Shown piece by piece: positions 43,340-64,000 of a stretch of DNA of 64,000 nt. The DNA is from Schmidtea nova (taxonomy: Eukaryota): the NCBI GenBank assembly GCA_044892505.1, contig CM097882.1, forward strand, positions 284,642,001 to 284,706,000. The letters run 5' to 3'. The notes under the pieces are model-generated. The model was not told the DNA's origin. It saw only the letters and a program-made list of their open reading frames with translations, and made no database searches. The stretch's first letter is position 1. Each line of letters opens with the position of its first letter. The position numbers and the translations under genes are program-made.

Positions 43340-45125
43340 TATGTTCAAGGTAGATTGGTATGGTCATCAAGCTTAGATATTTTCGCTTTCTTGTTAATAA
43401 ACAATCTTTCGTAGGTGACATCAACGTGTTCTCCTTCCTTTTAAACTCTGACTGATCGACATGAAGTAGGCTACTGTGTTTCACCTTACACCCCTCTTTC
43501 CTACAGAATGAAGCCTTTCGACATTCGGACGCCAAATGATTAGGCTTTAAACTATTGAAGCATAACTTCGATTCTTCCACAGCTTTAAGTCGCATTGCGT
43601 ATACAAATAATGATCTTCCTTGCATTTCCAGTTTTTCAACCTTGTGCCCAATGATTCGTTTTTTGACATGTTTGTATTGTTATCATTCCTATTCACTACT
43701 TGCCCAACAGGCGTCCGGTACCTTTGCCTTAGATTTACAAATTCTCTTGACGATCTGGGTTTTTCAATCGTTTTTTCTATTGTCATCCCCAATTTCAAAA
43801 AGAGTTTCCTTAGTTGACCTTAACAGCTCTACTTCATCTTGTAACCAATTTCTTAAATCTTGGATACACTCGGTTCCTGCTTAAAATCTTTTTTTCCATT
43901 TGTATAGCATCGAGCTTGGTAGCTTCTGCAGGTATCTCTTCAATAAATAACTGTTTTTCATTTCATCCTCTCGTTTAATATTAATTATTCTGACTTCCAG
44001 GGTTTCTAATAATCCGACGAATGCTTCTATTTCTAGCATCTCATTTTTCACGAACGGGTCGGAATATGTCTATCAACAAAAGCATGGAAAGCCGCTTTCC
44101 AAATTTCGTATTATTTTTGTTTTTCATCAAATATTTGAATTCGTTTTTGAAATTTTTGAATTTTTTCTATTTGTGCTATTGTCATCCAATCGAACTGACT
44201 GATTGGCCTTTGACGAAATTAAATCCTTCCAACTTTTCATTTTCCTCTTCAATCTCTTTTAAATCCGCGTCTAGTACTAGTAATATCCAGCTTTCCTTAT
44301 CTTTTGCTGATATCCAAGAATCTATCAAAACTTATAATAGTATTTTCCATTGCCTCCTGACATTCATCAAGAATATGTGATGCATTTTTTGCCAGCATCA
44401 TTCATCCATTTATTTCTCATTCTGATTAATCAATATTTAATACTCCTCTTCTTTCTTAATCCTTCCTCTAATTCCTCTTTCTCATTCCCTTCACATAATC
44501 TCAATGTTAGATGAATAGTGAATCCATCATGTACCATATAATCAAGCATTCTATGTCCTTCCTTTAATAGTTTGCCAATGTATGTAAGTCTCTGTTGACT
44601 AGGAGGTATTCCTTCTTTGTCATGATTTTTTTCTTTTAACTTCGCAATTGTGTCATTTATTACTCCTTCAAGAGCGATAGTTTTTCCCGAAAATCTGGAT
44701 TACCTCTCTCGATCGCCCAACCAAATGCGAAGTATACTCATTAACTTTACCACCCATATTCTAAACGAATCGAAAGAAATGCTGGGGCCCATAGCAGCAC
44801 TTCTCTCAAATACCTTGTGGTCAAGTTATTCCACTTTTCACCTCATTTCCATTGGTCAAACTTAAAATTGTAACTTTCATTATTCACTCCTCTCACACAT
44901 TACTCCCTTTCTTAAAACCATTATCATAATTTCTCTTTCAAAACGCTCTTTAGAGGGAAGGGTGATCAATGCCGCACTTAAAACTTTAATTAATTCATAA
45001 AAATTTACAAAATTTACAAATAAAATATCAGAATTGTTAATCAAAATGTAATAAACTAACAGGCTGGATCCTGAATTTCCAAGTTATGCGTAGTCATCCG
45101 CTGGGAAACACGCTCTGCTACCAAT
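43340..45125 (-). mobile_element. BEL/Pao LTR retrotransposon 5' portion (PBS, ubiquitin-like domain, gag), degenerate and truncated
   Basis: ...ATCA T TGGTAGCAGAG (LTR end plus initiator-Met PBS at 45123-45113); YEIWKAAFHAFVD (DUF1759-like); LCFNSLKPNHLASECRKASFCRKEGCKVKHSSLLH (Pao triple zinc-knuckle region). Confidence 0.8.
44487..44700 (-). pseudogene. Ubiquitin-like domain in frame with the start of the Pao Gag
   Basis: IQIF..SGKTIALEGVINDTIAKLKEKNHDKEGIPPSQQRLTYIGKLLKEGHRMLDYMVHDGFTIHLTLRLCEG, roughly half identical to ubiquitin by eye; N-terminal 11 nt deletion. Confidence 0.85.
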
Positions 45126-45152
45126 GATAGATCCAGGCCAGTTGTGACTGAG

Positions 45153-45412
45153 CAAGAGGTTGAGAAACGGAAGAATGTCGCATTTCACAAGGCGAGCGAT
45201 CTGTTGAGTGACTCGTATTCCAGTTTGTCGAGTTTGCCAGAATTTCTTGGAATTGTAAACTGCCTTTAAAAACGGCAACATTTGCTGTAGACCGAGCGAA
45301 TGAGCAGCCACATTAAGTGCACACGAAGTTATCTTTCTCACAGCGTTATTAATTGGTTGCTACATCAGGATGTAGAATCGATATCATGCCATCTAATCCG
45401 GCAGTTTTGCTT
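45153..45412 (-). pseudogene. SF3B1: Intronless SF3B1 HEAT-repeat fragment
   Basis: TAGLDGMISILHPD / AVRKIT...LPFLKAVYNSKKFWQTRQTGIRVTQQIARLVKCDILP matches SF3B1 AAGLATMISTMRPD...[38 protein letters not shown]; one frameshift. Confidence 0.88.
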
Positions 45413-46115
45413 CTGCATGTTTTATTAGATTCATTTCCACAACGAATCGCACAGTTTTGTCCGTATTGTACTCCTTGTAATCAGTAACCAAAGCAAGAGT
45501 TTTATCATTCTCATGTCGATAAATTTCCATTGCGTTTTCTTTGTAAGAGTTAGTCCAAGTTCAAACAGGTAATTCAGTAATTTCCAAAGTAGTACCACCA
45601 AGTTGATTTATTTTACCATTGACTACATATTTAATTTCATACACCTCAACAATCGTTCCGGTAAAATTACCATACCATGGATGCATTTTCACGGGAATTT
45701 CTCCATTAATCAACAGTTTCAATTTATCTATCACGTCTTCTGGGCTAAATTATGAATTTTATTACTCCACCTCGTTCTGATACCGTTACAACCGATGATT
45801 ATTACCATAAAAAACGCTGGTGCATACCATTCATGCTCGATAGGTTGATTATCATCTAACACATGTTTCAATACTGCTTCGTCGTCATGGTGAAATATTA
45901 ATTTCGTTAATTTGTTCAATTGAGTACATATGTAGCGAGGAAAAGCACTGTTTTTGCCCCCAGCTAACCGAGTACCAAAATGGCTGTTTGGCATCAAAAG
46001 ATTGATGTTATTGCTACCGATAAAATATTGAGTCAAGTTAATTATTGTAGATATCATAGATGCTTCCAGTGATGATATACTGATAATTCATTAACGCCGT
46101 TAAAACTCATTATTA
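45410..46115 (-). pseudogene. TOP2: Intronless DNA topoisomerase II fragment (active-site Tyr region)
   Basis: TIINLTQYFIGSNNINLLMPNSHFGTRLAGGKNSAFPRY, DDNQPIEHEWY, LEITELPV*TWT and TDYKEYNTDKTVRFVVEM; contains frameshifts and a CGA>TGA stop. Confidence 0.92.
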
Positions 46116-47377
46116 AAAAGCTAAAATTGTCAATTTAGATGAATATTCTACCAAGACGAATTATTCCAAATTTTCATTCAAAAAATACATCTTACAAAAC
46201 TTACCATTACTCAAACATTTAAAAATTACAAAAACTTATCAAAATTCTCAATCCGAAATAATTCAGTAAAACGCAAGTTCCAAAGAAAAATAAGAAGAAA
46301 TGATACATGAACATAATTTTATCAATTCATAATATTTTTTCTTCAATATAAACAATAATATACATACATAAACATAATATTTTTTTATTCCTATTTTGTA
46401 TACGAGTATAATACGCACCATTACTCAAACATTTAAAAATTACAAAAACTCATCAAAACTCTGAATCCTAAATTGATTCAGTAAAACACAAGTTCCAAAG
46501 AAAAATAATAATCACAATCATAAAATAAAATTAACTTTCCATTCAGTAATCAACACTTTCGTCAGATCCAAAATTTATTAGGTCTTTCATCATCATTAAT
46601 TGCCAAACTTTCTACAACGCTGTTTTCATATTCCAATTCATCTAATTATGTTCAAATTTGTGTTATACTCCAAAGTAAAAAAACATTCTTTGATTAGGTC
46701 TTCAACCTCACCCACCTGCAAAGAAAAGTCGTAGTTCTTTAAAAAATAAAACCAGAGAATTCTTTTAACATTTAAAAGGGGACTTCATATAGAGAGACAC
46801 TCAAAAATATTTTGGAATTGTTGCATAACGAATGCTGCGCACAACAAACTTTCTGTTCATCCATTACGCGACCCACACAACGGACTGCATCGTCGTTTTT
46901 AACATGTATTGTTATAAGAAAACGCGTTTCACACAACTTGCTTTTCGTATAACGAACTTGCTCCTGGAACGAATTAAGTACTTTATGCGAGGGATCACTT
47001 TATTTAACAAGTCCAAGACAGCCAGTTAAGTCTTGCATTTTATATTTTTATTCCGTAACCTGACCCCACCTACACAATCATGCATCATTAAAAAACTAAA
47101 CAGTGATTTTAGTCATTCAACCATACACAGATGAAAAAATGTACAATGACTTGAAACCAAAGTTTATTACCATTTTTATAGTCATGGTCCACCGACAAAA
47201 TATTAATTTTCTCTGAAACCCCAATCCTTCTTTGTTTATATTTTTATTGTACATTACTGCTCTATTTAAATGTCAATTCATTTTGTAAGAATAATGTAAT
47301 ATTTAACAAATAATGTTGTTTATGTATTATGAAAATGGGATAAAATAGAATTTTTGAAACGTGTTCTCACTTACAAG

Positions 47378-47959
47378 TAGGCGTGAATTTATCCTTAGGC
47401 CAACAAGGCTGAAGCCTAGGGCCCTGACTGGCAGGAGCCCCAAATTTTGTATTATTAGTATTATTATCAAAACTTATTACATCTTTTAATTATTTGTAGA
47501 TTATTATATTTATGTAATATAAGTAAAGAAGTATTTAATTATATTACATATTATATTTAATATAATACCTTTCTAATGTATAAATTTCACGAAAACATTT
47601 TCAACATTATCTCGTGTTAAAAATCATATAAGAAGCTGCACTGGACAATATCGACTTAATGCCTTATCATTAATGGCTATAAAATCTGAACTTCTCCACG
47701 AAATGGATTTTGATTTCATTGTTGAAGATTTTGCAGAGAAAAAATTTATAAGAAATAAAATTAATGTTTTTTATTTATGAATTGTACTTCTTGTTTATAT
47801 CTTTTATATATGAATAAATGTAATATTATTTTCGAAATTAAATTATTATTTTAACTATGAAACAGCAGAAAATAAATTAACCTTTTGTTTAAAAAAGGTT
47901 TATAAAAGCGCGCCATAAGATTTTTAGTGTTGGCCCCTAAAAGAGTAAATCCAGCTCTG
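47378..47959 (+). mobile_element. Non-autonomous hAT element (582 bp)
   Basis: Exact 8 bp target-site duplication CTTACAAG on both sides; imperfect TIRs; internal relic FSTLSRVKNHIRSCTGQYRLNALSLMAI (dimerisation domain). Confidence 0.88.
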
Positions 47960-48426: not shown

Positions 48427-51400
48427 TATTAGATGTTGATAGAACATCTTCTAAATCATTTCCTAAATCAGATTGAGAAGTTGAAGTCATAATTCCAAGT
48501 TTTTATTTTATGAAATATTATATAATTTTAAAACAAGTTTTCAGCCTTGAACAAAATATTTTAAAATGTAAATATTTAAAATTATTTATGAAAATTATAT
48601 TTTATTAAAATTTAATTATATATTTTACCGACTTTTAAAAATTAAAATTATAAAAAATTAAATACTCATTTAATTATAATAATTATTTTAAAACTTATTA
48701 AATTTAAATGGTTTATCATGTCAAATAATTTTAATAAATCATTAAAATATTTAGTTCTCAGTTGAAAACACCTCTTCTTTAAGAAATTTCTTCATCTTTT
48801 CAACATTTCTTTGGAGCATTTTCCCACTTTGGTCTTGTAGCAGATATCGGCGATCGTGGATCTTCTGCATTATTCTGTATGGCCCTTCGTATCTTTCCTT
48901 GTCTTTTGTTCTTGATTCTATTTTTACCAGTACATCGTCTCCAATATCGAAGGATCTTTTTGTCTGGGTTGTTTCTCATGTATATCCTTTTTGTGAAATC
49001 GGCGTTTTACTATGAAATTGTTCTCGAGCTATTTTTTTTCCAAATATTACTTCTGCTGGACTTAGCCCAATTGATTTCTGAAACGTTGCATTCAAGATAA
49101 ATTCAATTTCTGGTATGATATCTGCCCAATCCGTTCTACTTTTCCCTTTTAATGATGCATTTATATAATCTCTTATTGTCCTGATTTGACGTTCTATCAA
49201 ACCATTTGTATTATGATGGTACGGACTTGAAAAGAATAGTGTAGTTTCCATTGATTTTGTAAAATCAATCATCATCTTGGATTCAAATACTTTTCCACAA
49301 TCTGTGTGAATTTCCTTTGGTGCTCCAAATATAAGAATCCATTTTTGAAGTATTGTTTCTTTCACCGTTTCCTCATCCTGTTTAGCGACAGCCGTCAGAG
49401 AGATATATCTGCTAAATTTATCAATAATTGCTATTATATATCTTTCTGAATGTTTCCTGTAATGAGCCACATATATCAATGTACACTTTTTCCCATGGTT
49501 CTTCTGCTGTCAGTTTTATTGCCTCTTCCCTCATTTTTGTTGTTACAACTTTCGTTCTTTGACATGCTTCGCATTGTCCAATTGTTTCTTTTACTGATTC
49601 TTTTATGTCTTTCATATCGTAATTGTCTGCTACATATTTTGTCACTTTTTATGCTCCTGTGTGCGATATCAAAATATGTATACTTTTTATCATTTCTTGT
49701 CTTTTGTCTTTTAGTATCTATATCTTACCCTCTATAGTTTTCACCACATTGTCTACCAGTATAAATTTCCAACTAGAACCATGTGCTATTTCCTTTTTTA
49801 TCTGTTCTATTCCTGTATTATTTTTTGACATTTATAATCTTCAGTTTTTTCCATCGTGTTTATTCTTCGAGTTTTCATTCTTTCCACTTTCGCGTCTTCG
49901 TGTGCCAATAAACATTGTGTACATGTTCCACTTGTACTCCTTGACAACATATCTGCATTTGCATGAGCCGTACCTTTCTATACTCTATTTTAATATCCAG
50001 ACTACTGAGGTAGTTAATCCATGTCTGTAATTGCGTTGTTATTGGTTTCTTTGTAGATAACATAAACGTGATAGCTTTATGATCTGTTCTCAAAGTGAAC
50101 CGTTTTCCATATAAATAATGATTGAAGTGTTGACAAAAATAATAAATTGCTAGCAACTCTTTTCTTTTTATGCAATATCCCTTTTCATGATTGTTCATTG
50201 CATGAGAACCGTATGCTATTACCTTTTTATACCCATTATCATATTTCTGTGATAATACAGCACCAATCGTGTCAAAACTAGCATCTGTATCCAGAATGAA
50301 TTCTCTTTCGAAATCTGGAAAACCTAGAATAGATGAGAACATTATAGCATTTTTCATATTTTCGAATGCGATGTTGTATCCATCAGTCCAAATTAATTTT
50401 TTGTTGTTTAACTCGCATAACTCTTCTATAACTCTTGCCTTTTTTGCGTATTCTTTGATAAATATTTTGTAATAATTGCATATTCCTAGGAGGCTTCTCA
50501 GATTCTTATAACATTTTGGTCTTTCAAATGATTTAATCACGTCTTGCTTTGATGGGTCCGTCTGTATACCGTCTTTGTTGATTATATGACCTAAGAATTT
50601 GACTTCTTTCTTAAGGATATGGCACTTTTCAGGGTTTATCCTAAGACCCACCTTTCCAATTTTGTCAAGCACCTAATTAAAGACTTCATAATGATGATTG
50701 ATCGTCTCTGCAAATATCAAAATATGGTCCAGGTATACTGCTGCATATCTCATACCCAATAATACTTTTCCCATCATTTCCTGAAAACTAGCAGGCACCG
50801 CTGATATTCCAAATGGCATTCTGTTAAAACAGTATTGCCGTGACGGTTGAAAACGCCGTTTTTAACTTTGATTCCTCTTCTAGTTCTACTTGATAATATG
50901 CATTTTCCAAGATCTATTGAACTGAAATACTTTTTTCCACCTAATTTATCTAACATCTCTGATACATTTGGCATAGGGAACGCCTGTCTCTCTGTTACTA
51001 GGTTTAATTGACTGAAATCAAGGCATAATCTGATATCTTGCTTTTCTTTCTTCCAGACGCATATTAATGGAGTGTTCCATGGCAAATTACACTTTTTGAT
51101 GATATTGTTTTCCCATAGATTTTTTTTATCGCTTCATCTATTTTACCTTCCCAGTTGACTGTTTGTCTCCAAGGTTTAATATTTATCGGTTTTCCTTGAG
51201 CTTATATTTTGTGCTTCAACAGCTTTGTGCAACCGATGTTTAATTTATCAGCCATAAAAACATTTTGATTCTTTTTTATAATGTCTAGTAGTATCAGGTT
51301 ATCTATATCTATATATGTATTCTTTGGTCTTTTAAATAGATCCATCTTCGTTATTGTCTTCCCAAATTTGGCTTCGATACTGCATGTGTGTCCTTGCTTC

Positions 51401-53385
51401 GTTATCTCTACCTCTTCTACTGGCCACTTTAGTTGTATACCAAATTTATTTTGCAACTCTTTACCACCAATTACTTATGGAGTCATATAACTTACTATCG
51501 TAAACTTTACCCTTCTTTTCCTGCCATTTATTCCTATTTCTAGTTTTGCTTTATCCTTCATTTCTAAAAGCACATCTCGATGTATCACTCATTGTTATTA
51601 GCTCTACATCTTAAAGTTTCTCAAATTTGTTCCAACTCATGACATTTACTGTCGCTCCTGTATCGAGTAAGCATTCCATCTTCTGGTCTTGTATTCTAAT
51701 AGTTACAATTGGCCGTCCTTGCATTTTATAAAAACTAATAATATCGTTTTCCATTCATCTAATGTCATTATTTGTATTTTTTCTCTTTCTCTTTCTGCAA
51801 AATACTTTTTGATGAATCTGTTTACTTTCCTCATTACATTATTATCCTTTCGTTAACTCTGTATCTTTCACATCTTTCTCTATAATAAACGATATTCTAC
51901 TTTTACTATAATAATTAATAATTTGGGAGTCAGCATCGCTGTTTAATACACTTCCCGACTATCTCTTCTTCTATTGGGGCGTTGACGTTTGGGTATTATC
52001 TGTATTTATCTTCTATTTTTTCATCAATTGGTTCGTCTATGAGTGCTACGTATCTCTTGTCTGTCTGTCTTGTCTCCTTTCTCGCTATTTGATAACCATT
52101 CCCTGATTCGTATCACTCTTGTTGCCTACCAAAATTCTGATTGATTCTCCTATATGTCATTCTCTTCAAATTTGTATAGCAATCTGCCTCTTTATGTCCT
52201 CCCAAACTACACCTCTTACACCTTATTTTTGACAATCTCTTTTTGCGTGTTCTCGGGTACCACACGCATAATATTCAACTACCTTTCTCTGCACATGTGG
52301 ACTCTGGCTTTCTACATGTCCTTGTCTTCCACATGTAAAACATATAACTGTCTTCCTTGTTATGCAATCTCTCCTCAAATGTCCTACCTTGTGACATGTC
52401 CAATATCCTCTCTTAGTTCTATTCGGTCTTTCTTCTCGATACTCTCTCTCGGCTAGTTATTATATCTTGGTTATACAATATTTCTTGTTTGATTTGTAAC
52501 CGCGTCTCTGTAACTTCTTGTTATAGTCGGTTCTGGCCTTCTTTCTCTCACTGTATAGATTTCTTCTGCAACTATACGAGATTCGTGTAACTTCTTTATT
52601 TTTTCTTCACTTCGTTGTTATTTTTGTGTCACTTAAACACAATTCTCGCTTCAAAGTTTTCTCGGCTGCACAGTGTACCAGCAGATATTCTGTTAAGCTT
52701 TCCTTGTTTAACTCATGTCCCAATATTTTATAAACTAACTGGTCTATGATCGTAAAATATTTTTTGCCGATTGTAAATCCTCTGCCAACGTTGTTTTCTG
52801 ACGAATGCCTTTCGCATTCTTTCCTTATAGCATTTAATATTTGGATCAACTCCTGTATATATTTCTCTAATACTTTTATCGATCAGTAATTCGACCATCA
52901 CTTGTTTTGAAGTAGGCATTTGAACAACTTTTAAATATTTATCACATTCTTTAATGAATGTTTCAACATCCTCTCCTTATGAAAATCGCTCGGAAATAGT
53001 TTCTTTATGAAGAATTCCATTGACGTGGTCGACATATTAGATGTTGCTAGAAAATTTTCTAAATTATTTCCTAAATCAGATGGAGAAAATGAAGTCATAA
53101 TTCCAAGTTTATATTTTATGAAATATTATATAATTTTTAAACAAATTTTCAGCCTTGAACAAAATATTTTAAAATGTAAATATTTAAAATTATTTATAAA
53201 AATTATATTTTATTAAAATTTAATTATATATTTTACCGACTTAAAAATTAAAATTATTAAAATTATAAAAAATTAAATACTCATTAAATTATAATAATTA
53301 TTTTAAAACTTATTAAATTTAAATTATTTATCATTTTAAATTATTTTAAAAAATCATTAAAATATTTAGTTCTCAGCTGAAAACA
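48427..53385 (-). mobile_element. Full-length degenerate Ty3/Gypsy LTR retrotransposon
   Basis: ~345 bp LTRs at 53035-53385 and 48427-48770; PBS-like TGTCGACCACG; PPT AAAGAAGAGG. Domains: PR CLLDTGAT, RT PWNTP / LCLDF / RMPFG, RH FILDTDAS...ELLAI...TDHKAI, IN HHCC and IDICG / TDCG / NGLIER. Many frameshifts. Confidence 0.93.
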
Positions 53386-53689
53386 CCTCACAGAAATGAT
53401 TGCATTAGTTGTTTGTTACTATCCGTTCATCTATATTTAACAACAAGCCAAGATTGAACTTGCCAAGCTACAGTATAAAAGCGATTATAATCGAAGCAAA
53501 CATCCTTAAGGTGACCCAGTATGGATAAAACTGAACATAAAAAGTCGTGAATATCATAAAACCATTATCAAGTACAACGTTCTCAGCCAGGAATAACGGG
53601 TATTATATGCTGAGAGTAGTACCATATGGGCTATCTACACCACCAGTGCCCCCTCACCTATCCCCCCCCCGATTTTTTTTTTTTTTTTG

Positions 53690-54425
53690 AAATTTTTTGA
53701 ATTTTAAGGTCAATTTTTTACGCCATTTTGAATTTTAAGGTCAAATTTTTACGCCATTTTGAATTTTAAGGTCAAAATTTTACGGCATTTTGAATTTTAA
53801 GGACAAAACTTTACGCCATTTTGAATTTTAAAGTTAATTTTGTACGCCATTTTGAATTTTAAAGTTAATTTTGTACGCCATTTTGAATTTTAAAGTTAAT
53901 TTTGTACGCCATTTTGAATTTTAAGGTTAAATTTCTACGCCATTTTGAATTTCAAGGTCAAGTGGTGTTAAAAATCAAAATATTGTCGGCCATTTTGAAT
54001 CGTCCATTTTGTTTTTCAAGTGGTGTTAAAAATCAAAATATTGTCGGCCATTTTGAATCGGCCATTTTGTTTTTCAAGTGGTGTTAAAAATCAAAATATT
54101 GTCGGCCATTTTGAATCGGCCATTTTGTTTGTCAAGTGGTGTTAAAAATCAAAATATTGTCGGCCATTTTGAATCGGCCATTTTGTTTTCAAGTGGTGTT
54201 AAAAATCAAAATATTGTCGGCCATTTTGTTTTTCAAGTGGTGTTAAAAATCAAAATATTGTCGGCCATTTTGAATCGGCCATTTTGTTTGTCAAGTGGTG
54301 TTAAAAATCAAAATATTGTCGGCCATTTTGAATCGGCCATTTTGAATCAGCCATTTTGTTTTTCAAGTGGTGTTAAAAATCAAAATATTGTCGGCCATTT
54401 TGTTTTTCAAGTGGTGTTAAAAATA
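53690..54425 (+). repeat. Tandem arrays: ~31 bp CGCCATTTTGAATTTTAAGGTCAAATTTTTA units, then nine ~58 bp CAAGTGGTGTTAAAAATC...GGCCATTTTG units
   Basis: Directly visible; mirrored at 63300-64000 with ten 58-mer units. Confidence 0.95.
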
Positions 54426-55609
54426 CAAAATTATGTACTTAATATATGAAAAATATTTTTATTTAATGTAAATTAAGTAAAGTCAAATAAAGTACTTTAT
54501 ATATTAAGTATGTGATATATGAAAAGATTTTTATTTAATTTAAATAAAGTATGTCATATATGAAAATATTTAAAGTCAAATTAAATACTTTATATATGAA
54601 ATTATTTTATTTAATTTAAATAATTTAGCTCATATTGTGAAAAATAAAATAGAAAACAAAATAATAATTATTATAACTTTATTATTTGTATTTTTTGCTT
54701 AAAAAATTTAATATTATTAATATCTATCAAGGAAAGAGAAGACAAGATGAAGAACAAGTGCTTAATATTGCCAGTCCTAAAGAGCGGTGATTAAATGCCT
54801 GTGCCTAAAAGACACGCTGGGCAAGTAATCGCGTCCACAAGGGTCGTCGGTGCCTCCCCCAAAGTGGGGTCAATAGGACCTGGGCATCAATAGTTCGCTA
54901 TCTATAGCGATCACGTCTCAGATAAGCAAGGGTAGCCAGCTACCAAGACATCATCCACAACGTAGTGTTTCATACGCCATGAATGTGCCGGCAAGTTATC
55001 GTCATAGACACTATGACCGAAATTAATTAATATGTACACAAACATTCTCAATCATCGCAGAGGCCTCCCATTAGGTTGGATAACGGTCATCCACCACAAT
55101 GACTAGCATGCTTCATTTAAAAAATAAAATAAGGGATAACAACCCCCCCAACCCTCATTTATTAATATGTATAATAAAATATTAAAGTTTTCTTGTCATT
55201 GTCCTCTCCGGCTTTTCCCAGTCAAATCTAATAATAAAAGATATTGATTAATTATTAAAAGAATAAAAATAGTAATAATAAGAAAAATAAGAACAATAAT
55301 ATTAATTGTAACTTTAATAATAATAAAAGTGTCCCCATCATATATTCTCTTAGTCAAATCTATCAATAACTATTATTGATAGATTTATNNNNNNNNNNNN
55401 NNNNNNNNNNNNNNNNNNNNNNNNNNNNNNNNNNNNNNNNNNNNNNNNNNNNNNNNNNNNNNNNNNNNNNNNNNNNNNNNNNNNNNNNNNNNNNNNNNNN
55501 NNNNNNNNNNNNNNNNNNNNNNNNNNNNNNTTATTATTAATAATAATAAAAACAATATTAATGATAATAATAAAATAATGAATAATGATAATTAATGATA
55601 ATATTAATG

Positions 55610-55649
<40 letters not shown>

Positions 55650-56608
55650 TAATAATAATAATAATAAATATTGATGATNNNNNNNNNNNNNNNNNNNNNN
55701 NNNNNNNNNNNNNNNNNNNNNNNNNNNNNNNNNNNNNNNNNNNNNNNNNNNNNNNNNNNNNNNNNNNNNNNNNNNNNNNNNNNNNNNNNNNNNNNNNNNN
55801 NNNNNNNNNNNNNNNNNNNNNNNNNNNNNNNNNNNNNNNNNNNNNNNNNNNNNNNNNNNNNNNNNNNNNNNNNNNNNNNNNNNNNNNNNNNNNNNNNNNN
55901 NNNNNNNNNNNNNNNNNNNNNNNNNNNNNNNNNNNNNNNNNNNNNNNNNNNNNNNNNNNNNAAAAACAATATTTATATTAATAATAAAAATGATAAAAAT
56001 AATCAATCATAATAAAAGTTTATTTTTACCCTTTTAATATTACACAATGTTTTCTTTGCATTATCTTAATCGTTACACTTCAAAACGCTACACGAGCTTG
56101 AATTTTTAGGTTAAGAATTGCATGAACGACATTTTGAGCATCTATGAGTGTACCATAGCATATGCCTTTAAAATACTTTCTAAAAGCTATTCTTTGTAAA
56201 AAATAAATAACTGTTTGACAAATTTTCCGCTTTCTAGCGACCACCCTGAATTATAAAATTATTAATGATTAATTAAAATATGATTTGTTTTTGTGATATA
56301 TTAATTAATATTTTATTAATTAATTAATCGATTATGATCTTATTGATATATTATCAATACATGTTATCCTTGTCCTGGTTTATCACCACTTAATTGTACA
56401 TGTGTTATTATTATTTATTGGTGTCGCATTAATACCGTACCAGTGACATTTGTAGGGGATCATATGATGTCGTTAATTGTTTAGCCAGAGTTGCAATTGA
56501 AATATTTAGAAATTGAATATTAAATATAATTATAAAAGTAAATAATTAATATTTTTTTTTAAATAATGGAAAAAGGAATGAGTACAAAATTATTGAAAAT
56601 AAACATAC

Positions 56609-57092
56609 CATTGAAGGATATTTGATTTCTGTGAGAAGGTATTTCGAATACTTATACTTGGACATCTCAGTGGCATTGCTGAACACTTGTCTATACAATA
56701 TTCGGAATGTGTTTAACTACCATTTGTGGTAATCAGCATACGACCAATGGACTAGTACTTGATCCGATTCCTAGCATATGTCCCAAATAAGTCATTGGAC
56801 AATTATATTTCAAAAATAACCTTCGAATTCAGTTCTTCAATCATCGGAGCTTCGTTTCCGACGTCCATAAATGACACGGGATTCGTCCAAATACTTGTGA
56901 CGGTGTGTGTCGGTTGAAAGAAAGCATGAACTCTGAATCGGTATTTATTCTGTGGTTGGATGATTTTATCGGTATTATAAAGAATTTATCGGTAATCTAT
57001 AATTAACAGAACAAATAAAAAATGTTACTTGCGATAATTAAATTATAGCTAGACTCTATCCTGCGTCTTTCACACAGAGATTGTTAATAAAA
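56609..57092 (-). pseudogene. FN3-domain gene fragment, left-arm copy
   Basis: Mirror image of 60626-61109. Confidence 0.6.
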
Positions 57093-57833
57093 CTTAACAG
57101 TTAAAAGAAAAGAATTTTTCATCCCAATTCCTGAAATTGTAAAATATAAAAATCGAATTTGTAAACAAAATTATAAATAATGAAATTGCTTAAAACAAAT
57201 ATTTATATATTTATATAATCTTTATATTAATATTTTTATAACTTGAAAATAAATATTTATAAATTGATTTAAACTTTATAAATTAGGTTAAACTTTATAA
57301 ATTAGATTACATTTTTATAATTTACTTTAAAAATTTAAAGAATTTGCTTTTTAATTTACTGTAATATTTTAGTTACAAATGATTTATAAGGGTTTTCATT
57401 GAACTTTTGAATGATAGAGTGATAAAATTTAAATGAGTAAAACATTTCTGAATATGTAAACTAATGCGCGCACAAGTATACTTTATCAACCAAGATTCTT
57501 ATGTTGCACAAAACACTTAGATTGCTTATGTAGAACAAGGTTTTCATGTAGAACAAGGTTCTCATGTAAAACAAGGTTTTCATGTAGAAATTTATTTGGA
57601 TTAATTTGATCGGATTATTCAATCAGAACCCGGTACGCAAAGACAATGATTAAACATTTATAAGTCAGAGTTTTATTGTGAATATTTAGTGGGCATGACA
57701 CTTACAATACAAGTGCACAACACTTACAATACAAGTACAATCAAATTGCACTACTTGTTCAATCAAATGAGTAATACACACACATCTTGGACAAATTTGT
57801 ATAAATACTTGAAAATTTATGATTATTTATAAA

Positions 57834-58125
57834 ATGAAACAAGAAATATTTATTATAAATTTGATTGATGGTCTCTTGTCTAAAGAAAAAGATGATGTAA
57901 TCATATAAAGTTTACAAATCCTAGTGTCCGATGCCGAGAAAATATATAATTCCAATCCCATCGACTATTCATAGATTTTGAACCAAAAATCGGCTACAAG
58001 CAAGAAACACGCATTAAAAAGCGTGTTTTACTCGTTATTTGAGTCTAAAATGGAGTGGTCACATGTCATTGTGGCGTTCATGTATATTAAATAGATAATG
58101 GATAATTCGGGTTCAAATTATGAAA
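57834..58125 (+). pseudogene. Truncated copy of the Bcl-2-family gene (cut at the inner duplication breakpoint; lacks BH2 and TM)
   Basis: Mirror of 59884-59593; the frame runs into the spacer and stops (NYEIVF*). Confidence 0.75.
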
Positions 58126-58354
58126 TTGTATTTTAAATTTTAAAGTTTTATTTAGAACTATAACATGAATTTTAGTATAAAAACCCGCTTTGTTTTTACA
58201 AGAACTTGACTCTAAAAACTATGATATACAGTTTGATTAAAATACAACTATTTTAATTTATTTAACCCGCGCGCGTTCTTTATTTACGATATATTCCCAA
58301 TAATTATTTCAACATTTGTGTCACAGAATATCATTTTATTATGTTAATTTCATG

Positions 58355-59312
58355 CTGGTAGAACCTTGCTAGCAGAACACTAGTAGCAGAACCTTTAGTA
58401 ACAAAACATTTTTTGTGATGGTTTTTATCTGCCAAGGCTCTTACTTGAACATTTATTACTGTTACAATTCAACTTCATTCATCATCAATTGTTATAATAA
58501 TTTCACCCATTAATATTTTCTCGATTGTTTTTTAAAGTAATTATTGGTTTTTCTAATTTTAATGTCGAATTTACTATAACAATTAGTTGACACTCATATA
58601 ATTTTCAAAAATTTTATACAGTAGCAGAACATTGTGAACAGAACATTGCTAGCAGAACATTTAGTAACAAAACATCTTTTGTGATGGTTTTTATGTGCTA
58701 AAGCTCATTACTCACACATATACTACAATAACAATCATTAGCATAATCCTTTATGAACTTCGATCAATGTAACAGACAAATTGTGAAAGTTTATTACATT
58801 TACTGATACATCTTTAATAACAATTATTATGTGAATATTTATTGATTGATGAATATCTATGTATGTTTGATGAATTTCAATGTATTTTTGATATTTTGTG
58901 GGTTTTTTCTTGTAATTGCACTATAGAATGATGATATTTCATGTATGCAATGCAAGTGTATGGTGCATGCAATACAGATGCATGGTGCATGCAATACAGA
59001 TGCATGGTACATGTAATACAGATGCATGACACATGCATATTACGCATCACAGTTATTTATATCAACAATTCAGACTTAAAATGTGATAAGTAACAAAGTA
59101 GTTGAACCCTATTATCAGAACATTAGTATCAGAACCTTAGTAGCAGAACATCTTTTGTGATGGTTTTTATCTGTAAAAGCTCATACTGAATATTTTCATT
59201 CGTGTATCAATAATCTCAAGTATCAGAACCTTCCTAACAGAACATTAATAGCATAACATTGGTAGCAGAACCTCTTTTGTGATGGTTTTTATCTGTAAAA
59301 GCTCATACTGTA
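58355..59312. repeat. Four dispersed ~90 bp modules: 3-4 TAGCAGAAC-type 13-mers plus invariant TTTTGTGATGGTTTTTAT
   Basis: Exact 18 nt core at 58411, 58677, 59153 and 59275. Confidence 0.9.
58958..59040. repeat. 22 bp tandem repeat CATGGTGCATGCAATACAGATG, ~3.5 copies
   Basis: Directly visible. Confidence 0.85.
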
Positions 59313-59347
59313 TTTTCCATTTATATGTCAATTAAACAAAAATAAAT

Positions 59348-59884
59348 TTATTTTCGATAAATTAAATTTACAATAGCATAAATACTACAGAGTCCAATTG
59401 TTATTTTCAACAGATTTTTCAATCTTTCTTTAGTTTTTCTAATAGTTCTACTATTTTCGGTCAATTCTATTAGTTTTTGCCATTGTCCATTTTCTTGAAT
59501 CCAGGGACATATTTCACTTTTGATAATCTTAAATAATCTTAATAATATAATTAAATAAAAACAATATACTTGTACTGACCATTGAAAATAATTTTCATAA
59601 TTTGAACCCGAATTATCCATTATCTATTTAATATACATGAACGCCACAATGACATGTGACCACTCCATTTTAGACTCAAATAACGAGTAAAACACGCTTT
59701 TTAATGCGTGTTTCTTGCTTGTAGCCGATTTTTGGTTCAAAATCTATGAATAGTCGATGGGATTGGAATTATATATTTTCTCGGCATCGGACACTAGGAT
59801 TTGTAAACTTTATATGATTACATCATCTTTTTCTTTAGACAAGAGACCATCAATCAAATTTATAATAAATATTTCTTGTTTCAT
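59348..59884 (-). pseudogene. Bcl-2 family gene (BH3, BH1, BH2, C-terminal TM), two exons (59884-59570, 59527-59348), three in-frame TAA/TAG
   Basis: MKQEIFIINLIDGLL...VII*SLQILVSDAEKIY (BH3-like), SLFESKMEWSHVIVAFMY (BH1-like), CPWIQENGQWQKL (BH2), LLKITIGLCSIYAIVNLIYRK* (TM). The 42 nt GT-AG intron matches the local intron size. Confidence 0.8.
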
Positions 59885-62074
59885 TTTATAAATAATCATA
59901 AATTTTCAAGTATTTATACAAATTTGTCCAAGATGTGTGTGTATTACTCATTTGATTGAACAAGTAGTGCAATTTGATTGTACTTGTATTGTAAGTGTTG
60001 TGCACTTTTATTGTAAGTGTCGTGCCCACTAAATATTCACAATAAAACTGTGACTTATAAATGTTTAATCATTGTCTTTGCGTACCGGGTTCTGATTGAA
60101 TAATCCGATCAAATTAATCCAAATAAATTTCTACATGAAAACCTTGTTTTACATGAGAACCTTGTTCTACATGAAAACCTTGTTCTACATAAGCAATCTA
60201 AGTGTTTTGTGCAACATAAGAATCTTGGTTGATAAAGTATACTTGTGCGCGCATTAGTTTACATATTCAGAAATGTTTTACTCATTTAAATTTTATCACT
60301 CTATCATTCAAAAGTTCAATGAAAACCCTTATAAATCATTTGTAACTAAAATATTACAGTAAATTAAAAAGCAAATTCTTTAAATTTTTAAAGTAAATTA
60401 TAAAAATGTAATCTAATTTATAAAGTTTAACCTAATTTATAAAGTTTAAATCAATTTATAAATATTTATTTTCAAGTTATAAAAATATTAATATAAAGAT
60501 TATATAAATATATAAATATTTGTTTTAAGCAATTTCATTATTTATAATTTTGTTTACAAATTCGATTTTTATATTTTACAATTTCAGGAATTGGGATGAA
60601 AAATTCTTTTCTTTTAACTGTTAAGTTTTATTAACAATCTCTGTGTGAAAGACGCAGGATAGAGTCTAGCTATAATTTAATTATCACAAGTAACATTTTT
60701 TATTTGTTCTGTTAATTATAGATTACCGATAAATTCTTTATAATACCGATAAAATCATCCAACCACAGAATAAATACCGATTCAGAGTTCATGCTTTCTT
60801 TCAACCGACACACACCGTCACAAGTATTTGGACGAATCCCGTGTCATTTATGGACGTCGGAAACGAAGCTCCGATGATTGAAGAACTGAATTCGAAGGTT
60901 ATTTTTGAAATATAATTGTCCAATGACTTATTTGGGACATATGCTAGGAATCGGATCAAGTACTAGTCCATTGGTCGTATGCTGATTACCACAAATGGTA
61001 GTTAAACACATTCCGAATATTGTATAGACAAGTGTTCAGCAATGCCACTGAGATGTCCAAGTATAAGTATTCGAAATACCTTCTCACAGAAATCAAATAT
61101 CCTTCAATGGTATGTTTATTTTCAATAATTTTGTACTCATTCCTTTTTCCATTATTTAAAAAAAAATATTAATTATTTACTTTTATAATTATATTTAATA
61201 TTCAATTTCTAAATATTTCAATTGCAACTCTGGCTAAACAATTAACGACATCATATGATCCCCTACAAATGTCACTGGTACGGTATTAATGCGACACCAA
61301 TAAATAATAATAACACATGTACAATTAAGTGGTGATAAACCAGGACAAGGATAACATGTATTGATAATATATCAATAAGATCATAATCGATTAATTAATT
61401 AATAAAATATTAATTAATATATCACAAAAACAAATCATATTTTAATTAATCATTAATAATTTTATAATTCAGGGTGGTCGCTAGAAAGCGGAAAATTTGT
61501 CAAACAGTTATTTATTTTTTACAAAGAATAGCTTTTAGAAAGTATTTTAAAGGCATATGCTATGGTACACTCATAGATGCTCAAAATGTCGTTCATGCAA
61601 TTCTTAACCTAAAAATTCAAGCTCGTGTAGCGTTTTGAAGTGTAACGATTAAGATAATGCAAAGAAAACATTGTGTAATATTAAAAGGGTAAAAATAAAC
61701 TTTTATTATGATTGATTATTTTTATCATTTTTATTATTAATATAAATATTGTTTTTNNNNNNNNNNNNNNNNNNNNNNNNNNNNNNNNNNNNNNNNNNNN
61801 NNNNNNNNNNNNNNNNNNNNNNNNNNNNNNNNNNNNNNNNNNNNNNNNNNNNNNNNNNNNNNNNNNNNNNNNNNNNNNNNNNNNNNNNNNNNNNNNNNNN
61901 NNNNNNNNNNNNNNNNNNNNNNNNNNNNNNNNNNNNNNNNNNNNNNNNNNNNNNNNNNNNNNNNNNNNNNNNNNNNNNNNNNNNNNNNNNNNNNNNNNNN
62001 NNNNNNNNNNNNNNNNNNNNNNNNNNNNNNNNNNNNNNNNNNNNNATCATCAATATTTATTATTATTATTATTA

Positions 62075-62120
<46 letters not shown>

Positions 62121-64000
62121 CATTAATATTATCATTAATTATCATTATTCATTATTTTATTATTATCATTAATATTGTTTTTATTATTATTAATAATAAN
62201 NNNNNNNNNNNNNNNNNNNNNNNNNNNNNNNNNNNNNNNNNNNNNNNNNNNNNNNNNNNNNNNNNNNNNNNNNNNNNNNNNNNNNNNNNNNNNNNNNNNN
62301 NNNNNNNNNNNNNNNNNNNNNNNNNNNNNNNNATAAATCTATCAATAATAGTTATTGATAGATTTGACTAAGAGAATATATGATGGGGACACTTTTATTA
62401 TTATTAAAGTTACAATTAATATTATTGTTCTTATTTTTCTTATTATTACTATTTTTATTCTTTTAATAATTAATCAATATCTTTTATTATTAGATTTGAC
62501 TGGGAAAAGCCGGAGAGGACAATGACAAGAAAACTTTAATATTTTATTATACATATTAATAAATGAGGGTTGGGGGGGTTGTTATCCCTTATTTTATTTT
62601 TTAAATGAAGCATGCTAGTCATTGTGGTGGATGACCGTTATCCAACCTAATGGGAGGCCTCTGCGATGATTGAGAATGTTTGTGTACATATTAATTAATT
62701 TCGGTCATAGTGTCTATGACGATAACTTGCCGGCACATTCATGGCGTATGAAACACTACGTTGTGGATGATGTCTTGGTAGCTGGCTACCCTTGCTTATC
62801 TGAGACGTGATCGCTATAGATAGCGAACTATTGATGCCCAGGTCCTATTGACCCCACTTTGGGGGAGGCACCGACGACCCTTGTGGACGCGATTACTTGC
62901 CCAGCGTGTCTTTTAGGCACAGGCATTTAATCACCGCTCTTTAGGACTGGCAATATTAAGCACTTGTTCTTCATCTTGTCTTCTCTTTCCTTGATAGATA
63001 TTAATAATATTAAATTTTTTAAGCAAAAAATACAAATAATAAAGTTATAATAATTATTATTTTGTTTTCTATTTTATTTTTCACAATATGAGCTAAATTA
63101 TTTAAATTAAATAAAATAATTTCATATATAAAGTATTTAATTTGACTTTAAATATTTTCATATATGACATACTTTATTTAAATTAAATAAAAATCTTTTC
63201 ATATATCACATACTTAATATATAAAGTACTTTATTTGACTTTACTTAATTTACATTAAATAAAAATATTTTTCATATATTAAGTACATAATTTTGTATTT
63301 TTAACACCACTTGAAAAACAAAATGGCCGACAATATTTTGATTTTTAACACCACTTGAAAAACAAAATGGCTGATTCAAAATGGCCGATTCAAAATGGCC
63401 GACAATATTTTGATTTTTAACACCACTTGACAAACAAAATGGCCGATTCAAAATGGCCGACAATATTTTGATTTTTAACACCACTTGAAAAACAAAATGG
63501 CCGATTCAAAATGGCCGACAATATTTTGATTTTTAACACCACTTGAAAAACAAAATGGCCGATTCAAAATGGCCGACAATATTTTGATTTTTAACACCAC
63601 TTGAAAAACAAAATGGCCGATTCAAAATGGCCGACAATATTTTGATTTTTAACACTACTTGAAAAACAAAATGGCCGATTCAAAATGGCCGACAATATTT
63701 TGATTTTTAACACCACTTGAAAAACAAAATGGCCGATTCAAAATGGCCGACAATATTTTGATTTTTAACACCACTTGAAAAACAAAATGGACGATTCAAA
63801 ATGGCCGACAATATTTTGATTTTTAACACCACTTGACCTTGAAATTCAAAATGGCGTAGAAATTTAACCTTAAAATTCAAAATGGCGTACAAAATTAACT
63901 TTAAAATTCAAAATGGCGTACAAAATTAACTTTAAAATTCAAAATGGCGTACAAAATTAACTTTAAAATTCAAAATGGCGTAAAGTTTTGTCCTTAAAAT
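59593..64000 (-). repeat. Right arm of the giant inverted duplication (continues beyond the window)
   Basis: Reverse complement of 53794-58125. Confidence 0.97.
60626..61109 (+). pseudogene. Fibronectin type III repeat gene fragment with 32 and 50 nt introns and in-frame TAA/TAG
   Basis: IIQPQNKYRFRVHAFF...SIWTNPV (FN3 F-G strands), then ESDQVLVHWSY...*LNTFRILYRQV (next FN3, B and C strands). Confidence 0.6.

Follow-up and report, generated by a model that had tools for sequence, protein, structure and literature searches.

What is a ubiquitin domain doing in front of the Gag of a retrotransposon? The question is raised by a locus in a 64,000-nucleotide stretch of the Schmidtea nova genome (the window), for which a preliminary description proposed a BEL/Pao element with ubiquitin fused in frame to Gag as a cleavable leader. 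The letters on which that description was built (an LTR end, a primer-binding site (PBS), a ubiquitin domain ending LRLCEG and the start of Gag) were all confirmed on the minus strand. The features of the locus are as follows.

45125..46555, minus strand: 5' LTR, about 1,430 nt, with a TG start as in the LTR start of sister copy L167
46203-46296 and 46417-46511, minus strand: internal 95-nt duplication inside the 5' LTR
45409..46090, minus strand: topoisomerase II coding fragment (captured host sequence) inside the LTR; PF00521, E 1.5e-22
45159..45408, minus strand: SF3B1 coding fragment (captured host sequence) inside the LTR, in the PBS/ubiquitin/Gag frame
45113..45123, minus strand: PBS, complementary to the 3' end of host tRNA-Met(CAT); the long frame reads GSRA here
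44701..45112, minus strand: leader; its last part (about 44745-44701) is a decayed remnant of the tail of an earlier ubiquitin repeat
44487..44700, minus strand: ubiquitin domain, decayed, ending LRLCEG; PF00240, E 5.5e-17
43880..44486, minus strand: Gag N-terminal helical region and partial DUF1759, broken by stops and frameshifts and by a deletion at 44070
43341..43879, minus strand: Gag C-terminal part and start of the protease, with Cys-His knuckles at about 43633-43461

The CA at the 3' end of the LTR (45125) is common to the window copy and L167-L180. Within the LTR, the topoisomerase II piece is 90% identical to an intact host gene (L164), and the SF3B1 piece is 82% identical to an intact 1,202-aa host ORF (L163) that we take to be SF3B1 from its sequence resemblance. 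The two pieces lie in one shared frame in L167, L171, L172 and L173. The PBS match is the single occurrence within the 64-kb window, and its tRNA-Met(CAT) is presumably the initiator. The tail of the preceding ubiquitin repeat is clear in sister L003 and in young copies. When reading frames are compared, the ubiquitin of the window copy begins near 44700 in a different frame, which indicates a frameshifting loss near the start of the domain. From LRLCEG at 44487, the minus strand then runs in frame into NEKEELEEGLRKKRSIKY*LIRMRNK. Of the DUF1759-like, zinc-knuckle Gag described downstream, the knuckles and part of DUF1759 are present, but about 175 nt of the DUF1759 region found in sister copies are missing at 44070 and the Gag pieces alone have no Pfam match. 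Using a natural sister ORF as tblastn query, Gag can be followed in broken frames to about 43341. The element is truncated at about 43340, and pol and a second LTR are absent for this copy within the 64-kb window. The window copy is an old, decayed, truncated member of a high-copy BEL/Pao clade.

Elsewhere in the window lie a separate gypsy-type element (48427-53390, minus strand), whose repeats are 94% alike and which matches integrase and RT-RNase H, and a very long near-perfect inverted repeat (53700-64000). The latter has arms at 55679-58136 and 59582-62039, which are 100% identical, and at 54217-55521 and 62200-63504, and includes 31- and 58-nt tandem units. A short plus-strand ORF at 47577-47780 has no Pfam match but is reminiscent of the end of a hAT transposase.

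The assignment to BEL/Pao, which was made from the letters of this copy, is borne out by sister copies, since L044 and L049 carry protease, RT and Peptidase_A17 and L033 carries DUF1759 and integrase. DUF1759 (PF03564) was detected in L033, L045 and young copies, and Cys-His knuckles can be read in copies of the family. The pol order PR-RT-RNase H (Peptidase_A17)-IN-DUF5641 is found in L044 and L049, which belong to the window's subfamily, and in L116 and L096. Bounded LTR pairs were obtained from 22 of 40 long loci and are 96.5-99.9% identical with TG...CA ends; a tRNA-Met(CAT) PBS follows the 5' LTR, a polypurine tract precedes the 3' LTR, and 5-bp target duplications were read in L096, L101, L103, L123, L125 and L132. 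The near-identity of the LTR pairs, their TG...CA ends, the polypurine tract and the duplications show that the clade was recently active. Host tRNA-Met(CAT) genes carry a 3' end complementary to the PBS. A large tandem array of these genes, with 458-bp spacing, lies at 510.09-510.13 Mb of C1 (L264), and its tRNA-Met(CAT) pattern has 1,035 matches genome-wide.

Some features of the young copies (L093-L132) should be recorded here. Pol is absent from 38 of the 40 PBS-picked long loci, RT, RNase H and integrase being found in just two. Many young copies are one long ORF with an acidic, lysine-rich stretch in place of pol; this stretch sometimes displaces the capsid domain too and reaches up to or into the 3' LTR. 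Eleven of 18 young copies with a defined LTR start lie in (ATT)n/(TAA)n microsatellites, as a raw count. Six loci (L099, L105, L108, L113, L119 and L130) are tandem arrays in which the whole upstream 1.8 kb is repeated about 5 kb further on.

The PBS pattern has 1,505 exact matches in the genome, compared to 0 for a control pattern. We examined 70 PBS-picked copies, chosen without regard to ubiquitin and all lying within the first 54 Mb of C1: the initial 30 in order of position, then 40 out of the 46 that follow, with six immediate neighbours passed over. Ubiquitin lies within 1.6 kb of the PBS in 65 of the 70. In 60 of these 65, L-x-G-G directly precedes Gag; one copy reads CGW and four are frameshifted. 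Ubiquitin also precedes Gag in 29 of 30 copies picked by Gag (DUF1759; 28 from one subfamily) and in 18 of 20 picked by pol (every eighth of 150 matches listed, three elements overlapping the Gag-picked sample), although such counts are not of independent events because the copies are related by descent. The misses checked (five PBS-picked, L232 and L252) all lack the Gag start as well, and among the copies examined we found no Gag start without ubiquitin, the extracted sequence of the one remaining miss (L256) being too short to tell. When the genome was searched for further ubiquitin-Gag copies, the 40 scored of 850 candidate places matched at 75-100%, so the arrangement is not due to chance. 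The in-frame fusion claimed for this single copy is therefore a property of the family, and neither of the outcomes that the preliminary description had named as damaging to it (other copies without ubiquitin, or a consensus junction out of frame) was encountered. A one-off processed ubiquitin pseudogene in a dead element would fit the decay of the window copy and its flanking gene fragments, but is refuted by the family-wide presence of the domain; we give it practically no chance.

The window copy itself reads CEG before Gag, and it had been suggested that its ancestor ended LRLRGG. For the recent past of this copy, decay from RGG was not supported. Among the 29 copies nearest to the window, the junction is RLCGG in 21, RVCGG, RLCEG, RLCGE and RLCGW in one each, and unread in four. 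Since RLCGG is this frequent and RLRGG does not occur among the 29, the cysteine is the working state of the window's subfamily and not a sign of decay. RLCGG followed by N is also the commonest junction among young copies (25 of 65). Other subfamilies have RLRGG, GLRGG, RLNGG, GLKGG or RLKGG, and RLRGG was seen once with the window's Gag type (L066).

We compared 18 ubiquitin sequences, 11 from this genome (window included) and seven from the outside relatives described below, in an ungapped alignment anchored at the C-terminal end, in which N-terminal positions of divergent rows are rough. L73 is present in all 18 rows, and G75 and G76 in 17 each, the exceptions being two decayed copies. Residue 74 has seven states, with R74 in only four rows, while R72 is kept in 11; the native pair is present in the subfamilies with an HSP70 leader. 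I44 is kept in 9 of 17 rows, V70 in 3 of 18 and K63 in 7 of 17. The residue after GG is N in 41, M in 10, S in 5, G in 3 and V in 1 of 60 copies, and is Pro in none of the 60. Furthermore, LxGG is found at the Gag junction in 55 of 59 copies, as against 35 of 59 at the tail of the upstream repeat. The partly accessible text of PMC8983731 describes contacts between USP28 and the side chains of ubiquitin R72 and R74. Because these two residues vary, and the ubiquitin of some subfamilies is just 44% identical to the host's, some subfamilies may be cut poorly. A cleavable junction, as first described, is consistent with the conserved GG of the family; the window copy itself, with CEG, lacks the L-x-G-G end.

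The domain is nearest to repeats 2 and 3 of the host polyubiquitin gene L051, in agreement with the proposed origin from a real ubiquitin; this resemblance, together with the repeat tail in front of the domain, shows that it derives from a polyubiquitin mRNA. We computed pairwise dN/dS on 52 copies. For ubiquitin, values are 0.04-0.22 between Gag types (one pair saturated), 0.04-0.13 versus the host and 0.13-0.55 within Gag types, showing the purifying selection that the preliminary description had asked about; for the first 90 Gag codons, they are 0.14-0.33 among close types. The same HSP70 leader (dS 0.05-0.07) precedes Gag types that differ by dN of about 0.85 (the L063, L101 and L102 types), indicating that leader and ubiquitin modules were swapped between lineages. 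It should also be noted that one younger subfamily (L085:1868-1990, and L089) carries within its leader, as cargo, part of a ubiquitin from the window's subfamily.

The larger feature of these elements, absent from the preliminary description, is a translated-frame host cargo in the LTR. Upstream of ubiquitin, the frame stays open through 130-400 leader codons and the PBS, which reads GSRAW, and into the LTR. Position 1 of ubiquitin is I or R, not Met, in the window's Gag type, so translation would not be expected to start at the domain as it does in fusions of the UbL40/UbS27a type. Over the last 130 LTR codons, 51 of 70 copies have no stop in the PBS frame, compared to 0 and 2 of 70 in the other sense frames. 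Of 17 pol-bearing copies, 15 have no stop in the PBS frame and two have one, while the other frames contain 2-20 stops. PBS and ubiquitin lie in the same frame in 48 of 65 copies and in different frames in 17, a number in which post-insertion and assembly indels are counted together. Single ORFs were found that run through LTR cargo, then HSP70 or HSP90, then ubiquitin and then DUF1759. An in-frame ATG is present in 61 of 62 open LTR frames. In 54 of 70 copies an AATAAA lies 10-70 nt upstream of the PBS, compared to at most 7 in any other 50-nt bin; the window's LTR type and the K74 subfamilies lack it.

To identify the cargo, we scanned 60 of the 62 open LTR frames (two tandem duplicates were dropped). 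Host Pfam families of 12 kinds were matched by 37 of the 60: HECT, enolase, FHA, TPR, CCT, FKBP, ThiF, proteasome, Dcc1, SAM decarboxylase, APC2 and ABCD. Further copies carry TCTP, Paf67, a ubiquitin-family domain or a prenyltransferase, and leaders contain pieces of HSP70 or HSP90. In the other five frames, only 2 of 95 stop-free stretches, which are shorter than those of the PBS-frame set, gave a match (the CCT cargo in a shifted sense frame, and one below the cut-off). Among the matches listed, at least 118 element-like SAM-decarboxylase matches and at least 54 partial HSP70 matches are spread through the genome.

The cargo is, by its exon structure, derived from spliced host mRNA. The DCC1 cargo, found in LTR pairs about 5.5 kb apart, consists of two host exons at 99% and 97% identity without the 6.5-kb intron between them, and is joined to an FKBP piece over shared letters (apparent microhomology). 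The UBA1 cargo begins at the host ATG and lacks a short host intron. Both are therefore partial, intron-less pieces of the kind left by LTR-mediated retroposition. Splicing of host exons onto the LTR end was considered as a route of capture; it is disfavoured for DCC1, since both ends of that fragment lie within exons. Likewise, a rule of pure 5'-end (start-codon) capture is true for UBA1 and is suggested for SAM decarboxylase, where most matches begin at profile position 2-3, but is false for DCC1, topoisomerase II, SF3B1 and HSP70. The LTRs of L176-L180 contain the SF3B1 piece alone, and in L167-L175 topoisomerase II replaces its 5' part; this comparison suggests serial capture towards the 5' side.

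Cargo and ubiquitin evolve differently. For leader cargo, dN/dS is 0.62-1.73 among copies, although HSP70 cargo compared to the host gene gives 0.33-0.79, so some amino-acid constraint is possible. In 21 copies with an HSP70 leader, 78 amino-acid changes are common to two or more copies and no stop is; about 4.9 shared stops are expected from site counts (Poisson P about 0.007). Both stops that were found in these copies are private.

The same junction occurs outside this genome. Protein queries containing ubiquitin were swamped by polyubiquitins. We searched for relatives with Gag-protease lacking it. Of 83 hits, ranks 1-6 and 8 have ubiquitin, or its tail ending LxGG, before Gag; these seven polyproteins share 31-41% Gag identity with the query, and PF00240 is not listed for the other 76. 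Recognisable host-type cargo stands in front in four of the seven, including kinesin plus Sec24, and HSP90, and two further pieces are probably DnaJ-like and C48 protease-like. The Sec24 piece of P0124 is about 50% identical to that of many animals. The PBS peptide is in frame in two of the seven. In a quick, midpoint-rooted tree of RT-RNase H (67 rows, 17 too-short hits left out), the seven relatives and L116 form one side of a branch with SH-aLRT 99.

The observed architecture, its presence copy-wide, the mRNA origin of the cargo, the shared frame and the pattern of selection have to be explained together. We consider it likely that the ubiquitin is an internal cut site, at which host deubiquitinases (DUBs) would release Gag from a variable, host-derived front end. 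Transcript ends, translation and cleavage are inferred as follows. Transcription would start in the first 200-300 nt of the LTR (a short U3), and polyadenylation would take place near the LTR end, placing the cargo in a long R region. Reverse transcriptase could then, on the model of PMC5131818, switch templates in R onto co-packaged host mRNAs, and the host sequence picked up would be copied into both LTRs. Ribosomes would start at an ATG inside the LTR, sometimes the host gene's own, and Gag would still be made only from in-frame, stop-free captures. Cleavage after L-x-G-G by host DUBs would make the identity of the cargo irrelevant to Gag. Selection on ubiquitin along the long frame, drift in the cargo, the lack of inherited stops and the invariant L73-x-G75-G76 together favour this cut site as the probable explanation, as do the AATAAA before the PBS, the matching junction in the outside relatives and the ubiquitin insertions of pestiviruses. 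Counting against it are the variation of R72 and R74, the LxGG still present at many upstream tails, the 17 copies in which the frames differ, and the lack of AATAAA in the window's LTR type and the K74 subfamilies. Selection for an open frame is itself weakened as an argument by the fact that coding sequence already lacks stops when it is captured, and joints guided by microhomology may tend to be in frame even if nothing selects for it.

The preliminary description instead saw ubiquitin as a short leader at the N-terminus, cleaved off so as to raise Gag expression, set the Gag N-terminus or recruit ESCRT. Such a leader would suit the HSP70-leader subfamilies and L217, in which ubiquitin has Met at position 1, is near-native (90-95%) and keeps its GG. 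However, ubiquitin of the window's Gag type begins with I or R, the domain is internal, behind the leader codons and the LTR frame, and that frame extends far upstream and is kept clear of inherited stops. The variation of the hydrophobic patch (I44, V70) and of K63 makes ESCRT use or chain functions unlikely. With several different residues following GG, the element does not set one fixed N-terminus, and the commonest residue, Asn, is destabilising at an N-terminus by the N-end rule. We regard this role as improbable.

Alternatively, ubiquitin could remain uncut, or be cut by the element's own aspartic protease, and sit between cargo and Gag to space their folding or to serve as a binding module. 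Purifying selection across the whole domain, core residues included, agrees with a spacer, as do the variable R72 and R74 and the internal Ubi2/SUMO-like domain in the polyprotein of Burro elements (reported in the accessible part of PMC6431247). A spacer does not account for invariance being highest at L73, G75 and G76, for Pro never following GG, or for the many young long-ORF copies that have lost most of pol, some also protease and capsid domain, and yet keep GG; we find it quite improbable. It might also be that the upstream frame is a by-product of microhomology captures and selection against nonsense-mediated decay (NMD), with Gag made from a spliced or internally started message. The cargo is open by origin, its joints show microhomology and it evolves near neutrally, all as expected from a by-product. 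But avoidance of NMD does not demand that cargo and Gag match in frame over LTR, PBS and leader, as they do in 48 of 65 copies and again in the outside relatives, and the commonest type lacks a start codon at both ubiquitin and Gag. This explanation strikes us as very improbable.

A bolder reading, which we advance tentatively and doubt more than we believe, is that the LTR would be a cassette of host housekeeping mRNA, renewed again and again, that shields the element against small-RNA silencing (by analogy with the elements of PMC13534243), since silencing the cargo would hit essential genes. The cassette would supply start codons and a 'self' coding front end, and ubiquitin would be the adaptor that lets DUBs strip the cargo.

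These elements resemble other BEL/Pao elements (Belpaoviridae) in their TG...CA LTRs, 5-bp duplication, tRNA-Met PBS, polypurine tract and one gag-pol frame with DUF1759, Cys-His knuckles, protease, RT, Peptidase_A17, integrase and DUF5641. They differ in the ubiquitin before Gag, the LTR-born frame that crosses the PBS and the exchangeable host cargo. A survey of BEL/Pao, whose Flow superfamily includes planarian families, does not mention 'ubiquitin' in its accessible portion (PMC3118150), and the part of PMC11410931 that is available mentions neither Pao nor ubiquitin. Neither a ubiquitin-Gag BEL/Pao element nor translated LTR cargo was found in titles and the starts of abstracts; supplements, Repbase or subscription papers could describe one.

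As a processing signal, ubiquitin is likely comparable here to that of cytopathic pestiviruses. Cytopathic BVDV (Osloss, CP1, CP Rit) also has cellular ubiquitin in its polyprotein, with other host coding sequence in front, and host hydrolases cut after the insertion, freeing the downstream protein (PMC8310069, in the text available). In contrast to that sporadic RNA-virus recombinant, in which cleavage is proven, the trait described here is old and fixed in a retrotransposon clade whose front end changes constantly, and cleavage is deduced from conservation. In LTR-mediated retroposition and the captures by Bs1 and Ty, captures are likewise intron-less, partial and multi-gene, with microhomology joints and further rounds of retroposition, but internal ORFs give way to the cargo, which leaves the element non-autonomous (from the accessible sections of PMC5131818). 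Here, by contrast, both LTRs and the leader hold cargo that is in frame with an intact gag-pol, also in pol-bearing copies.

The giant planarian gypsy elements Burro/GYPSM1 also combine host-like domains, including Ubi2/SUMO-like, in one polyprotein. Unlike the present family, they are 30-kb gypsy elements with N-terminal Gag, a ubiquitin-like domain downstream and a fixed domain set, and an LTR-borne frame is not described in the available portion of PMC6431247. Fragments of host genes (nxf2, piwi, aub) are carried by an active family of Drosophila telomeric elements, for which anti-silencing and other fitness benefits have been proposed (PMC13534243, as far as its text is accessible). Those are non-LTR elements with 140-235-bp pieces, mostly of piRNA-pathway genes, whereas here hundreds of bases of housekeeping coding sequence are in frame with Gag. 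The fusion is real, shared by the family and more unusual than first described, as it belongs to a BEL/Pao variant with a translated-frame host cassette in the LTR and a likely DUB cut site before Gag.

If the proposed cut site is real, the retrotransposon would leave it to the ubiquitin system of the host to make the first cut in its polyprotein, and the LTR would become a translated, exchangeable slot for gene capture, although LTR and PBS are normally non-coding. The captures would amount to a genome-scale record of co-packaged mRNAs. They would also have scattered pieces of host genes across the genome by the hundred, which can mislead gene annotation. Finally, the family would offer an animal system for testing whether transposons gain protection from piRNA silencing by capturing host sequence.
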